From assembly GCF_001677475.2 (NCBI RefSeq), contig NZ_CP012498.1: a DNA stretch of 64,000 bases. One strand, written 5' to 3'. The stretch is from Escherichia coli (GTDB lineage: Bacteria > Pseudomonadota > Gammaproteobacteria > Enterobacterales > Enterobacteriaceae). Made by a program: the position numbers. Of this stretch, positions 51,001 to 60,000 are shown one piece after another. Positions within the stretch are counted from its first letter, which is position 1. The number at the start of each line of letters is the position of its first letter.

Positions 51001-54000
51001 GATTTGTACATGTGCAAATCACCAGAGCACCCGCTAATCTTTGTTTTAAATTAAAATGGGCAGAATATATTCCGCCCGGCTTTGTTATTTTTTTAACATA
51101 GAAAGATTGCGTCTGGTTTGTTCTTCGAAATCATCTTTTGAAGTGATGCTCTCTGATTTGTTTTCTGAAGATGCCCCTATGATGTTTTTTAACACACTTA
51201 TATCAATTGATGTAGATGTGTATCCTGTTGTTTGCTCTATAAGTTTCACCAGATTTTCTGCAGTGATTTTCTCACTGAAAAAACCACTGATTAGCGTTAA
51301 CAGTCGGGGGTCAACAGAATAAAGAGCTGCTCCGCAAATAAGAGATTGTCTGTAGAAGTCTCCCCGCATTTGTATCGGGAGAGAGTCTATTGTTTGTTGT
51401 GTCAGGTTATCCTGCGGATAAAGTGTCGGGTGCAGGTATGCCACAACTTTCTTTCTTTTTTTCGGATCACTGCTTTCCATTACGCATGCACCATTGCTTT
51501 CACCAATGCAAACTGAGGTTCATCCACCTTGTTCACTTTCAGATTCGGGAAATATTGCTTTATGTGAGGGTAAATAAGCTCGGCTCCTCCGCCAGTGAGA
51601 TAGATTCGGTTCATTCCTGAGAATGTTGAAATTTCCTGCCTGATGCTTTCTGCCAGAGATTTCACTTCCCTGTCTATTACATGAGTAATGTTTTTTATTT
51701 CAGCTACATCATTTATTAATGTCTGGAGATATTCATTATCATGTCTGTTTTTTATTAACTCATCAGCAATAAAATAATTACATGGTGTGGAGGCTTTCGT
51801 CAGCGCATTCATGACGGTATGAGTGATGCGGGATGTCCCGATTTCTGAATACCCACGGATTTCAGAAATGCCTTCAAATGCACCGAGAATTAAACCACAA
51901 TCCAGAGTGGTTCCTCCAAGATCGATAATCAGGCTGCGTTCAAGTTTGTTTACTTTATCTTTTTTTAGTGATTCAAATGCAGCTGGCAAAGATTCAGGCA
52001 TTACATTAACTTTTTTAATTTTAAATGTTTCCCCTTTATTCAGAGATATCTCACGGAGAACATTTGCCTTTTTTCTTTCTATTCTTTCTTCATTTGGTTG
52101 ATTGTCATTATCAAAGAATTCGGTTACAGGTAATGTCACTGTCAGTTCTACATCCTGTGGCTGAAGGCCGGATGTCAGCAGTGCATGATGTATGGCAAGC
52201 AAATTGGTGGTGCTGTATTGATAACTGACATGTGTTGTACCTATGACAGCAGTGCTGCCCAAATCATAGGTGTATTTTTTTCCATCCACGACGTAATTGT
52301 AAACTTTGCCGGCATTAAACAGTCCCGGGTTCCAGCCTTCTTTAAAGCTGTTTCCTGACAGACTGGTTCTTACCTCGCCATCTTCAAGCCAGGCCAGTTT
52401 TACGTTAGTTGAACCATCATCGCATGATACTTTTAGCATTTTTTTTCTTGCCTCGTTTTGAGTTTGTGTTTGTCTCAAATTGAGCATCCTTCATATAGAT
52501 GCATCTTTTTGAGTTTTTTGTTGTTCCTTATTGTGTCTCATTTTGGGTTCATGTCAAGCGATGAGGCTCTTTTAGAGTCTCTTTGTGTTCTTGTTGTGAC
52601 TCAGTTTGAGTCTCTATCGATTTCTCATTTTGCGTTACGAACTGAGACGGAAACTACTTAACCAGGCCGTGCCGGCACGTTAACCGCCCGTTTCTTTTCC
52701 GGTAAAGGATGTCGCCGTGCTCCTCTTTTTACTGCGCCGGCTGACGCGGCGCGGCATAAACGCTGCCTGTGGTCAGTGTCCCGCGTCCGGCGGGCACGGG
52801 ACGGGCGCTTTTACCGCTCCCGGCTGGCGTCGGTGACAGTGTACGCCAGCCAGTCGCCCTTTTCTGATGAACGCCCTTCAAGCCGCTTTCGCGGCATAGC
52901 CTTGCCGTCAAAAAGACGACGGCTGCGGTATTCCACGGTCGGCCTGACCCGTTACCGGACGCGGTGAACAGCCCACAGGCAGCGGGGAACGGGCACCACA
53001 GGGGGGCCCTCCCGGTGCCCTCTGTAAGAGAAGGAGTTTTGTATGTCCCGTTTTGTCCTCGGTAACTGCATCGATGTTATGGCCCGTATTCCTGATAACT
53101 CCATTGATTTCATGTCGGGTAGCAGCTGCACATTACTGTGCAGCCGCCCCCTAAGAACCGTACGTGCCAGTTTCCCGGCATACGGCTCAAGCCTTTCAAT
53201 AACTCCACATTAGAGCCGGCTTCATAACAGATATTCCCTGATGTTTTGCAGTGTGATGACATGCCGGATGTAACATGGCCAGATTACCTATGTTATCCAG
53301 TCCCCCTTCGGATTTCGGCACAATGTGTCGAAGTTGCCAGCCTGTTGTGGCGTTCACTGGCAGGTGGCAGACGGGGCACTGACCTCCCTGTCGGAGCCAC
53401 AGATTTCTTAGGCGAGAGTAACCCTGTATGGATTCCAGCATCGTAGCTTTTAGCCGTGCTTCAAAGTACGATTCGTAGCTGGGATCAAAAGGGTTAGCAG
53501 TGCTTTTTATTTGTCTGTGTCTTTTGACTGGCATATCCGAGATTTCATATAGCGCCAGTAACTCACGTTTGCCTGATGGCAGGTATGAGACGACAATAAC
53601 TCAGTCCGCCTGGCGCCGATTATTCTGGCCGGTTTTGTAACCTGAGTGTCATTTACATGATCCAACAGGAAATGGCGTGACGCTCAATACTTCTCAGGTC
53701 AGTTACTATATGACTCAGCGTAAGAAAGGTATAACTCAGCATATCTCGGCCATGAAGGCTGGTATCTCAGTCCGTTCTGGTCGTCGGATCGAAAAAGGAG
53801 AGTGGGCAAAAAACAGTGTTCGGCACTGGCGCACACGCAAAGATCCTCTGGAAGCTGTGTGGGACAGCATGCTTGTTCCTCTGTTGAAAGAGAGGCCGGC
53901 TCTGACACCAACAACTCTACTGGAGATGCTACAGGATAAATATCCCGGCCAGTACCCCAACAGCCTTCGAAGAACAATGCAACGGCGGGTTCGCGAATGG

Positions 54001-57000: not shown

Positions 57001-60000
57001 GTAACCCCTTCTTTTCAGCGTGTATATAGCCTTCATCTTGCTGCCGGGTTTTGACCATGTTTTGCCATCAACACCCGGCGTTCTCTTCCCTCTGTTATCT
57101 GTCACTCGTTTAACTGCCATTGCTCTGGCGCTGAACGAGTGGGTGAGTAGCCATTGCAAGGCTTTTACCTTGCCCGCTTTCTCCTCCTGTATTGCCTTCA
57201 CGATACGCGCCTGCAGCCTTCTGACCTCGCGACGGCACTTGGCCCAGTTGATATTGTGCCAGTGAGTCACGATGTCGGTGGGTGCACCCGCGTTTATGTT
57301 TTTCGCAGTCATCTGCTTACCCTCCTTCAAAGGTATTCAGGTTATCTCGTGTTGAAAGACCATGCGGAAGTCTGCCCGCTTTCGCGTGGAATGATGTTGC
57401 TGAAACAGCTCAACTCCTGTCCATCCCATTACAGGATGGCATTCGCTTTCTCCGCACTCCTGTACCCGCATCACTGACAGCTTTCCTCGCGGTTAGCCTG
57501 CCCTGAGGGCAGTGATACGGGCTTACCGTGTTCCGCACAGTTTGCAGGGATGGGTTAGGTTCTGCCTATCCACCGGTAGCTTTGATGTCCGTGCCTCCCC
57601 AGTCAAAAGAGGAAGGTCCAGCTACGTTCCCATTTTGGGTCGGGCCTGTCAGTGCCTTTGGCCCGTTCAGGGTTGACGATGTTTATCAGCAGTTCACATG
57701 TGTTAACCCTGCCATCCAGCCTTGCGCCCCATCCGCCCTGACACTGGCAGACATGCTTCCTCCTCGCGGATTCCACATGGTGTGAAAACCGGGCTACGTT
57801 GTCCCGAAGGCTTCATACCGAACAGTTACCCGCTCTGCATGCTTCGGTAGGCTACAGGCGACGGAACGCCTGGTTTTACTACTTCCTTTACATGAAGTTA
57901 AAACAACAAACTGTGCGACTTTCACGTCGCACACTGACTGACCCACCGTACCTCGTCGGTTTCCGTGACCGTTCCGGGCGCACCATTGCCGGTGACGTTA
58001 ATGATGACTGGCTGCAACCTGCCAGCAATGAGATGTACCGCGTACTCAAAAAAGACGCACTGATGGTCAGCTTCTACGGCTGGCACCGTATTGACCGCTT
58101 TATGGCGGCCTGGAAACGCGCCGGATTCAGCGTGGTAGGGCACCTTGTGTTCACCAAAAACTACACATCCAAATCTGCGTATGTCGCGTACCGCCACGAA
58201 TGCGCTTACATCCTGGCAAAGGGCAGTCCGGCCCGGCCCCGTAACCCGCTGCCGGATGTGCTGGGCTGGAAATATTCGGGCAACCGCCATCACCCGACGG
58301 AAAAGCCCGTTACCAGCCTGCAACCGCTGATTGAGAGCTTCACACACCCGAACGCGATTGTGCTGGATCCGTTTGCAGGCAGCGGTTCAACCTGCGTGGC
58401 TGCCCTTCAGTCCGGACGCCGGTATATCGGTATCGAGCTGCTTGAACAGTATCACCGTGCCGGACAGCAACGACTGGCCGCCGTGCAACGGGCCATGCAG
58501 CAGGGGGCCGTGAATGATAACTGGTTTGAACCGGAGGCTGCATGACGAATTACAGCGGATTCGAAGATATGCGTGAACAGGTGGCGGAACTGGCCAATAC
58601 CATGTGCGACCTGCGTACAACCATGAATGAGATGGAGCAGCGGTAAAGCGATGCGGACACCCTCCCGGAACGTCTGGTGCGCCAGACACTCTTTCGTGCC
58701 AGTTACCTGTTTATGAAGGCATATAACGAAATTCTGGAACTGGATGCGTGCTTTAAAGATTGAGAAGGAGACGAGAATGTACGGAACATGCGAAACGCTA
58801 TGCCGGGCGCTGGCAGCAAAGTATCCGGGAGACACGCCGCTGATGCTGGTTATCTGGTCCCCGGAAGAGATTCAGGCCCTCGCTGACGGAATGGATATTT
58901 CCCTGTCCGATCATGAAATCAGGACCGTCCTGGCGCGCCTGGAGGACATCCCGGAAGACCAGCGGACTGAGTCCTGTATTTCTTCCGGCGTGGCGATGGA
59001 GATCATCAATAACGTGAGAGAAAACCGCCAGGTGACCGTCCCGGCTGAACTGCTGGCGTCCCTGATTCAGACCGCCGAACAGGCACTGTGGAAACGTGAA
59101 TGGGCCGCCCGTGATTACGGCCTTGCCGTCCCGGAATGCGTTACCCGCCGTCAGGCGGTGGTTAATCAGGCCCGCATCCTGCTGAAAAACAACACACACG
59201 AAAACGACTGATGTTATCGCCGCCTTCGGGCGGCGATTCAGGGAGACCATTAATCATGAACAAAACGCTGAATGCACTGGTTTGTCGCCACGCCCGTAAC
59301 CTGCTGCTGGCGCAGGGCTGGCCGGAAGAGACGGATATTGAACAACTGAATCCGCACTATCCGGGCTGGATCAGCATTTATGTGCGACTGGATGTATCCC
59401 GGCTGGCGACGTTACTTATCAGCCGCCATGATGGCGTGCTGCCGCCGGTCCTGGCGTCTGCCATGCAAAAACTGACCGGAACCGTGGCGGAACTTGTACT
59501 GTCCGGCAGCCAGTGGCAGGCGCTGCCGGTACTTCCGGCAGACGGAACGCAGGTGTCTTTCCCGTATGCCGGCGAATGGCTGGCAGAAGACGAAATTAGG
59601 GCAGTTCTTGATGCGGTACGCAATGCAGTACGAAGCATCTGTTACCAGGTGGCAGACGATGCGCGGCGTATCCGGGCGGCGCTGACCACCACCGGTCAGA
59701 CGTTGCTGACCCGCCAGACGCGCCGCTTTCGTCTGGTTGTGAAGGAAAGCGATTACCCCTGCTGGCTTGATGAAGATGACGAAAATCTGCCCGTGGTGCT
59801 CGATGCCATTCTGAACCGTGGCGCCCGTTTTTCCTCTGTGGAAATGTACCTGGTCTGTGAGTGTGTGGAGCATATCCTGGCCAGTGGTCTGGTCTGTGAT
59901 GTGCTGCGTATACCGGATGAACCGTCCCGTCGCTGGTTTGACCGGGATATTCTGCGGGAGGTTGTTCTGGAGGCACGGGATGAAATCCGCAGCATGGCGG

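Follow-up and report, generated by a model that had tools for sequence, protein, structure and literature searches.

The RT/maturase (IEP) gene of a group II intron in the 64,000-nucleotide stretch of Escherichia coli DNA analysed here (the window) lies in two parts with an istA/istB pair between them, which raises the questions of what split it, where exactly the splitting element begins and ends, and whether the two parts still make up one gene. The original prediction of an IS21-family element nested inside the intron RT gene was borne out: the two IEP parts are on the minus strand with istA/istB on the plus strand between them (Table 1), and the element matches ISEc10 along all of its length (2410/2410 bp, at 98.5-99.8% nucleotide identity to copies annotated as "IS21-like element ISEc10" on plasmids and E. 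coli chromosomes, with RefSeq-annotated copies such as NZ_CP042298, NZ_AP042570 and NZ_CP018956 serving for the measurement).

Table 1. Features of the nested methylase gene, intron and insertion sequence, in window coordinates
Feature	Coordinates	Strand	Details
N6_N4 DNA-methylase, 5' piece	53043-53113	+	codons 1-23 + 2 nt
Group II intron	53114-57932	-	4819 bp with IS, 2403 bp without IS
Intron domains V-VI	53114-53190	-	Rfam RF00029, 65.4 bits (gathering 40)
IEP codons 441-566 + stop	53196-53583	-	D region + HNH endonuclease (residues 507-550); cut off from start codon
Left target-site duplication, GGCAGG, 6 bp	53578-53583		empty-site alignment to L001
Complete ISEc10, IS21 family, 2410 bp	53584-55993	+	full-length match to RefSeq-annotated ISEc10 copies
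IRL of ISEc10, TATGAGACGACAA	53584-53596	+	imperfect likeness runs on to about 50 bp
istA, IS21-family DDE transposase, intact	53677-55176	+	499 aa from GTG start; NCBIfam NF033546
istB, AAA+ helper ATPase, intact	55173-55928	+	251 aa, GTG start; NCBIfam NF038214
IRR of ISEc10, TATTAGACGTCAA read inward	55981-55993	-	
Right target-site duplication, GGCAGG, 6 bp	55994-55999		empty-site alignment to L001
IEP codons 1-440	55994-57312	-	RVT_N, RVT_1, GIIM/X; ATG at 57312
Candidate EBS2, ACCCU	57669-57673	-	intron nt 260-264, EBS2a at C258; aligned to EcI5 EBS2 nt 253-257
Intron domains D1-D4, 5' part	57725-57873	-	Rfam RF02012, 113.6 bits (gathering 34)
N6_N4 DNA-methylase, 3' piece	57933-58545	+	begins just before DPPY motif

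Matches to other ISEc10 copies began and ended exactly at 53584 and 55993, and the termini, TATGAGACG...CGTCTAATA, were common to this copy and to the eight others compared, seven of which are also 2410 bp long, while the remaining one (L005) is 2409 bp, has two mismatches among the 25 bp at its left end and carries a frameshift in istB. Imperfect terminal inverted repeats, a feature of the IS21 family, are present, with 11/13 and 34/50 ungapped matches between the left end and the reverse complement of the right end. IS21-family termini are usually 5'-TG...CA-3', which is typical of the family without defining it; those of ISEc10 are 5'-TA...TA-3' in all of the copies examined, and are thus characteristic of ISEc10 as such and not peculiar to the copy in the window. 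The family's gene order, istA and then istB, was also found, the istA product scoring 226 bits against NF033546 transpos_IS21 (cut-off 160) and the istB product 266.7 bits against NF038214 IS21_help_AAA (cut-off 200). At 1500 nt istA has the length of annotated ISEc10 istA genes, at 756 nt istB has the length seen in the reference ISEc10 copies, and the two genes overlap by 4 nt, the istA TGA stop with the istB GTG start (CAGTGAGC). Transposition of ISEc10 has been seen in the laboratory (PMC7482066).

Alignment to an uninterrupted copy of the intron, the check that had been proposed with the original prediction, fixed both the junctions and the length of the target duplication. The reference, from PLSDB, was the IS-free intron on plasmid NZ_CP129264 (L001), in which positions 1501-2185 correspond to 52900-53583 of the window and positions 2180-4286 to 55994-58100, and the two alignment blocks overlap by 6 bp, GGCAGG, a sequence that the empty site of L001 has only once (GATGGCAGGATCTTCC). 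The inserted block is ISEc10 plus this 6-bp duplication. IS21-family elements make a short target-site duplication of 4-8 bp, a range into which GGCAGG falls, and among the other ISEc10 copies the duplication was 6 bp in four of six and 7 bp in two of six, with none at two of the eight copies.

Candidate junctions had previously been placed elsewhere, with a 4-bp duplication of ATAG, a left junction at about 53534-53552 and the RT C-terminus resuming at 53534. ATAG does stand at 53549-53552 and at 55991-55994, and a reading in which ISEc10 is bounded by this duplication (about 53552 to 55991), with an extra indel, can draw on that; but the left ATAG is 32 bp short of the IS end and belongs to undamaged RT coding sequence, as 53553-53583 aligns collinearly to the IS-free intron and codes for the SGKRELLALYEISD of the intact IEP, which precedes MPVKRH. 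The true junction is 53583/53584, the C-terminal part resumes at 53583, and all independent ISEc10 copies start at TATGAGACG, that is at 53584. The window holds 300 copies of ATAG, below chance expectation, and so the 4-mer is uninformative, while the 6-bp duplication leaves no need for an indel, and we give this reading, which the alignment, the restored IEP and the other ISEc10 copies refute, next to no credence. Intron 2, to whose RT both parts had earlier been aligned, is only a distant relative, similar to the present intron in four patches only (72-94% nucleotide identity) with an IEP 53% identical. As intron 2 is so distant and its linker from X to En is shorter than in the present intron, alignment to it misplaced the junction, and it was set aside as a junction reference as too divergent, in favour of the uninterrupted copy.

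Deletion of 53584-55999 in silico gave an in-frame IEP of 566 amino acids, identical at 566/566 residues to WP_000125551.1 (the ltrA product of NZ_CP129264), and hence the two RT parts, which do not join in frame with a simple 4-bp duplication, do so once the 6-bp duplication is allowed for. The restored IEP scored 379 bits against TIGR04416 (cut-off 300), and Pfam placed RVT_N at residues 18-99, RVT_1 at 114-327, GIIM at 343-421 and HNH at 507-550. Over the whole IS-free intron only 1/2403 nt differed from the L001 intron and this change was synonymous, which argues that there has been no decay since the insertion.

These observations bear on two other ways in which the junctions could have come about. 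Homologous recombination between two ISEc10 copies, or an IS-mediated rearrangement, might have joined halves of two different introns, and the plasmid is indeed IS-rich and mosaic (related plasmids account for no more than 34% of the 25 kb alongside), with the two ISEc10 copies that lack a duplication indicating that such rearrangements occur. However, the direct repeats at the two ends of ISEc10 are identical, both intron halves are collinear with one reference intron at the single-nucleotide difference given above with the frame perfectly restored, and both methylase flanks are in the correct order and orientation, making such an origin extremely unlikely. It is also very unlikely that an assembler misplaced ISEc10 into the intron: insertion sequences are classic sites of repeat collapse and the junction was absent from all of the collections that we searched, but a misjoin would not yield a perfect 6-bp duplication of a length typical for ISEc10, nor would it put both junctions exactly at the IS termini.

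As the sequence stands the IEP reading frame is split, and the set of RT, X/maturase and HNH domains expected in a domain-IV IEP is complete only after removal of the IS. The break is at codon 440, between GIIM/X and the DNA-binding/HNH region, from where the N-terminal frame reads through 57 unrelated codons of IS sequence before it stops at 55819-55821; the stop of the C-terminal part is at 53196-53198. The product that is left is therefore RT and X/maturase with a 57-residue nonsense tail, and the DNA-binding region and HNH endonuclease are lost. Judging by this domain content, the leftover product may keep maturase activity. By analogy with other En-plus group II introns, bottom-strand cleavage and target-primed reverse transcription would depend on the DNA-binding and HNH regions, and so, on its domain content, the intron is expected to be no longer autonomously mobile. 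No second intact copy of the same intron was present in the 64-kb window; an intact copy elsewhere in the genome could provide the IEP in trans. Such help would be required if the IS-bearing intron were a functional composite, retrohoming with ISEc10 as domain IV cargo. ISEc10 leaves the intron's ribozyme parts intact, and domain IV is known to accept insertions, for example of a T7 promoter in mobility assays of EcI5 (PMC8643678), but the junction had no second occurrence in any collection searched and the window has no identical intron to give the IEP, that of intron 2 being only 53% identical, and so we regard the composite as a most improbable explanation.

Outside the IS, the next layer is the intron itself. 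It begins with 5' GTGCG at 57932 and ends with 3' ...CCCGAC at 53114, boundaries that fit the 5' GUGYG and 3' AY rule, with ribozyme domains at both ends. Joining 53113 to 57933 recreated an uninterrupted methylase gene, which aligned as one BLAST piece at 98.8% identity, and the two methylase pieces (71 + 613 = 684 nt) together are exactly as long as the uninterrupted gene of L010, where the empty intron site reads GATTTCAT/ACTGACTGACCC (ACTGAC following the junction); by comparison with this empty site the insertion is precise and has no target duplication. The intact methylase homologue matched Pfam PF01555 with E = 2e-37. The methylase exons here are a diverged allele, 24 of about 380 flanking positions differing from NZ_CP129264, and the near-identical intron thus sits in methylase alleles some 6% apart. 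The proposal of three nested layers is accordingly right in the physical sense (methylase gene, intron, IS), but not in the sense of an intron that its host gene could remove: splicing from a host mRNA requires both to be on the same strand, whereas the methylase is on the plus strand and the intron with its IEP on the minus strand. Being antisense, the intron is not spliceable from methylase mRNA and is a gene-inactivating insertion, and so the methylase would already have been inactive before the IS arrived.

The sequence places the intron with mobile group II introns of a IIB1-like class with an En-plus IEP, and its presence in methylase alleles some 6% apart is an indirect hint of splicing and retrohoming activity. 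In EcI5 nucleotide A258 directly follows EBS2 (PMC8643678), and alignment to this region pointed to a candidate EBS2, ACCCU (Table 1), which pairs with UGGGU as IBS2 of the 5' exon at 4/5 positions, while C258 as EBS2a pairs with G-14 as IBS2a; the candidate covaries with the 5' exon across three introns, and the EBS2/EBS2a assignment is thus probable. A candidate EBS1 loop, UUUUGACU (intron nt 325-332), pairs with exon positions -6 to -2 only, its hairpin having been picked by eye. The 6-mers ACTGAC and GACCCA (intron nt 280-297) were considered as EBS1 and EBS2 and rejected, as intron 2 and EcI5 share this conserved segment although their exons differ.

Taken together, we consider, with a probability of roughly 0.93, that the locus arose by simple transposition, an active-looking ISEc10 having moved recently into an intron which by then occupied a dead gene; no feature of the sequence speaks against this. 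The intron would earlier have retrohomed into the antisense strand of an orphan DNA-methylase gene in the leading region of the plasmid, at the I-L-T-DPPY codons. By the IS21-family mechanism, in which the IstA DDE transposase acts with the IstB AAA+ target-DNA helper, IstA would then have cut at GGCAGG with a 6-bp stagger inside intron domain IV, and gap repair would have made the 6-bp duplication, leaving ISEc10 in the opposite orientation to the intron with IEP codon 440 broken. As the methylase was in all probability already inactive, the IS is likely to have landed in selectively neutral DNA. The probable order of events is therefore methylase, intron homing and then a very recent ISEc10 hop.

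The present intron and intron 2 are both antisense to leading-region genes, and therefore the IBS target strand would be the transferred T-strand. It is conceivable, though unlikely, that during conjugation the present intron homes into plasmid DNA that arrives single-stranded, with complementary-strand synthesis providing the primer, and so inactivates the orphan methylase, an anti-restriction function of the plasmid, at the DPPY motif. If this were true, the basis of the nesting would not be accidental, and ISEc10 would have put out of action an element directed against functions by which the plasmid becomes established. The variant in which the IS rides as intron cargo in domain IV is still more speculative. 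Only one aspect of the locus, how the intron is oriented with respect to the T-strand, might merit a wider survey.

ISEc10 and the intron were both already known and their nesting is an ordinary mobile-element case, which matters little beyond annotation. The exact boundaries of three nested elements are now fixed, and an RT "pseudogene" and a methylase "pseudogene" are simply explained by nested insertions, giving a clean natural case of an IS inactivating a retroelement at what was probably an already neutral site. Searches of 72,556 plasmids, 5,426 complete E. coli genomes, metagenome contigs and GTDB representative genomes gave no match to the exact intron-ISEc10 junction, and because of this the junction could act as a marker of a strain or plasmid lineage.

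ISEc10 elsewhere has the same length, termini and istA/istB overlap and mostly 6-bp duplications, only the insertion site being different, and the uninterrupted intron (ltrA product WP_000125551.1) occupies the same methylase site in the same orientation without ISEc10 in IncI, IncK and IncF plasmids of E. coli, E. fergusonii, E. albertii and Salmonella, NZ_CP129264 being one example. In CP100064.1 and CP100015.1 the same intron at the same methylase site has its RT ORF interrupted by an IS66-family element, and as that element belongs to another IS family and stands elsewhere in the ORF than ISEc10 does in the window, its insertion is an independent event. EcI5 (E.c.I5; IIB1, with a CL1-lineage RT), on the EHEC-type plasmid pO157, resembles the present intron in its RT, X, D and En domains, in having EBS2/EBS2a in the same place and in lying upstream of leading-region genes, but it has the same orientation as its neighbouring genes and lies outside the methylase, which is intact. 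The two are only about 68% identical in nucleotide sequence (60% for the IEP) and have different target sites, and an identification of the present intron as EcI5 was rejected on these grounds. In Enterobacteriales, inactivation or interruption is common among group II intron copies carried by large mobile elements, 111 fragments in 55 copies having been reported (Leclercq & Cordaux 2012, PMC3522654). In comparison with those fragments, the element that split the intron, its two junctions and the uninterrupted ancestor can all be identified here, and the event is probably very recent.

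The RT gene of intron 1 is interrupted by an intact-looking IS21-family element, ISEc10. The ORF listing, the raw sequence and Rfam matches all bore out the original prediction of a group II intron RT gene split around an istA/istB element. In megablast searches of PLSDB, dozens of plasmids carried the entire region 52900-58100 except for about 2.4 kb, and the complete arrangement was present in none. Junctions were mapped by alignment to NZ_CP129264 (L001), a plasmid with an uninterrupted intron 1 at the same methylase site and an intact ltrA; intron 2, a second group II intron in the window, was too divergent to serve as reference and was dropped. 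L001 1501-2185 corresponded to window 52900-53583 and L001 2180-4286 to window 55994-58100, and these blocks overlapped by the 6 bp GGCAGG, which occurs once at the empty site of L001 and twice in the window, so that the alignment fixed both the junctions and the duplication length. In-silico removal of 53584-55999 fused the RT halves in frame (they had been thought not to join so), giving a 566-aa intron-encoded protein (IEP) whose sequence is exactly that of the ltrA product of L001, with the C-terminal part resuming at 53583 rather than at the proposed Met codon at 53534. The 4-bp "atag" duplication first proposed as bounding the IS (53549-53552 and 55991-55994) is refuted by the L001 alignment, the in-frame restoration and the ends of other ISEc10 copies; its left member sits within intact RT coding sequence, 32 bp off the true end, and both sites are coincidental, the window containing 300 copies of ATAG. 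Misassembly placing ISEc10 in intron 1 is highly improbable, as it would not be expected to yield a duplication of IS-typical length at the exact IS termini, and the identical 6-bp repeats, together with perfect collinearity, make it unlikely that IS-mediated recombination united two intron copies.

Coordinates of features in the window (except where an accession is given)
Feature	Position	Strand	Remarks
Methylase pieces	53043-53113; 57933-58545	+	interrupted by minus-strand intron 1
Intron 1	53114-57932	-	first bases GTGCG, last ...GAC
Intron 1 domains V-VI	53114-53190	-	Rfam
Intron 1 5' domains	57725-57873	-	Rfam
RT ORF	57312-55819	-	from ATG to end of open frame; ORF listing, raw sequence
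HNH-containing ORF	terminating at 53196	-	ORF listing
Overlapping gene pair between RT and HNH ORFs	53677-55176; 55173-55928	+	ORF listing
Inserted block (ISEc10)	53584-55993		
GGCAGG repeats	53578-53583; 55994-55999		
Intron 2, uninterrupted	61337-63678	-	Rfam match 61337-63634 (-)
Intron 2 IEP	61418-63085	-	555 aa
hlyA-, hlyB-, hlyD-sized ORFs	14196-20820	+	1003, 705, 479 aa
Further coordinates listed with plasmid features	51480-52487; 9433-9555	-	
Locus of the intron 1 copy with an IS66-family element (tnpA, tnpB, transposase)	CP100064.1 798-4808		also in CP100015.1

The 2410-bp block was 98.5-99.8% identical end to end to hundreds of annotated "IS21-like element ISEc10" copies on plasmids and E. 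coli chromosomes, with matches beginning and ending at 53584 and 55993 when flanks were included in the query. Eight further copies were retrieved for comparison of ends, length and duplications: all shared the termini TATGAGACG...CGTCTAATA, seven of the eight were 2410 bp (the exception, L005, was 2409 bp, with a frameshifted istB and two mismatches at its left end), and flanking duplications were 6 bp in four, 7 bp in two and absent from two. Target duplications in seven copies (window and L002-L009 set) were GGCAGG, GGTCACC, CACTGAG, CGGCAG, GGCAAG, GGCGGC and CCTGGT. With several of them close to GGCRRS, a weak target preference is conceivable, although seven is too small a sample. IstA and IstB exceeded curated NCBIfam cut-offs (IS21 transposase and IS21 helper ATPase respectively) and had the lengths of annotated references, the istA stop overlapping the istB start, and the ends form imperfect inverted repeats (11/13 and 34/50 matching positions). 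The termini are TA...TA; those of the IS21 family are usually TG...CA. Given these gene scores, lengths and ends, and the transposition of ISEc10 seen in laboratory selections with strain CFT073 (PMC7482066), the window copy looks intact and potentially active.

Fusing 53113 to 57933 gave an uninterrupted 684-nt gene matching, in one piece, "DNA methylase" genes of many plasmids; the empty site in plasmid L010 reads GATTTCAT/ACTGACTGACCC. Pfam assigns the intact protein to N6_N4_Mtase (PF01555, E = 2e-37); in it, intron 1 separates F23 from I24, immediately ahead of the catalytic DPPY motif. As intron 1 lies on the strand opposite to the methylase, it is antisense and not removable from the methylase mRNA; the predicted nesting of IS in intron in gene thus stands, with the qualification that the intron is not spliceable from the host message, and the methylase was already inactivated before ISEc10 arrived.

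The restored IEP contained RVT_N, RVT_1, GIIM and HNH domains and passed TIGR04416. ISEc10 breaks it in codon 440, between the maturase/X domain (343-421) and the HNH domain (507-550), and past the break the reading frame continues through 57 codons of istB antisense sequence (55819-55993, minus strand). The predicted translatable product, 440 IEP residues plus 57 unrelated IS-antisense residues, would be a chimeric 497-aa RT-X protein without the D and En regions, and the D + En portion is left without a start. By analogy with other En-plus group II introns, we infer that the ISEc10-bearing intron is no longer capable of target-primed reverse transcription and so no longer retrohomes autonomously; maturase activity of the truncated IEP might persist. 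No second identical intron able to complement intron 1 was present in the window, the intron 2 IEP being only 53% identical to that of intron 1.

The only difference between restored intron 1 and the L001 intron, over 2403 nt, was a synonymous one at 56779, and the methylase flanks differed at 24 of ~380 positions; a near-identical intron in diverged methylase alleles suggests recent entry, by homing, of the same intron. The ISEc10 insertion appears more recent still, judging by a perfect duplication, lesion-free IEP halves and 99.8% identity of the IS to other copies. The intron-ISEc10 junction was absent from PLSDB, 5,426 complete E. coli genomes, metagenome contigs and GTDB representatives; the insertion is apparently a private event, and the reading of ISEc10 as intron cargo has no support, its junction being seen nowhere else in these collections. 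Two other plasmids have this intron in the same methylase position with an IS66-family element in its RT ORF, an IS hit independent of ISEc10. Neither component is a new element, and insertions within insertions are familiar where the DNA is already inactive. Among group II introns on enterobacterial mobile elements, interrupted copies and fragments are common (PMC3522654).

The hly-sized ORFs and a ParM gene suggest that the source is a large EHEC-hemolysin-type plasmid. Its best relatives, from cryptic-clade Escherichia sp. and from E. coli, were plasmids of ~170-225 kb with 34% coverage of 28000-52900 only, and the window also held a full-length isrC sRNA match (146.6 bits).

Intron 1 was ruled out as EcI5, the group II intron of pO157 (~68% nucleotide and 60% IEP identity, at a different site), with which it has its layout in common. 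Its ACCCU aligns with EcI5 EBS2 (nt 253-257, position checked against PMC8643678) and pairs with 5' exon positions -12 to -9 on the methylase antisense strand, while EBS2a (C) pairs with G-14; covariation of these positions with the exons is also seen in intron 2 and EcI5. The EBS1 assignment in intron 1 is uncertain. Intron 2 (5' exon ...GAGCCGAAGGGGCGC) shares 72-85% nucleotide identity with intron 1, in patches, and is oriented alike. The orientation relative to the T-strand is the one point deserving a wider look: for leading-region methylases the transferred T-strand serves as template (PMC11541004), so the target strand of both introns should be the T-strand. That these introns home into the incoming single strand during conjugation has a low probability, EcI5 of pO157 being oriented the other way round.
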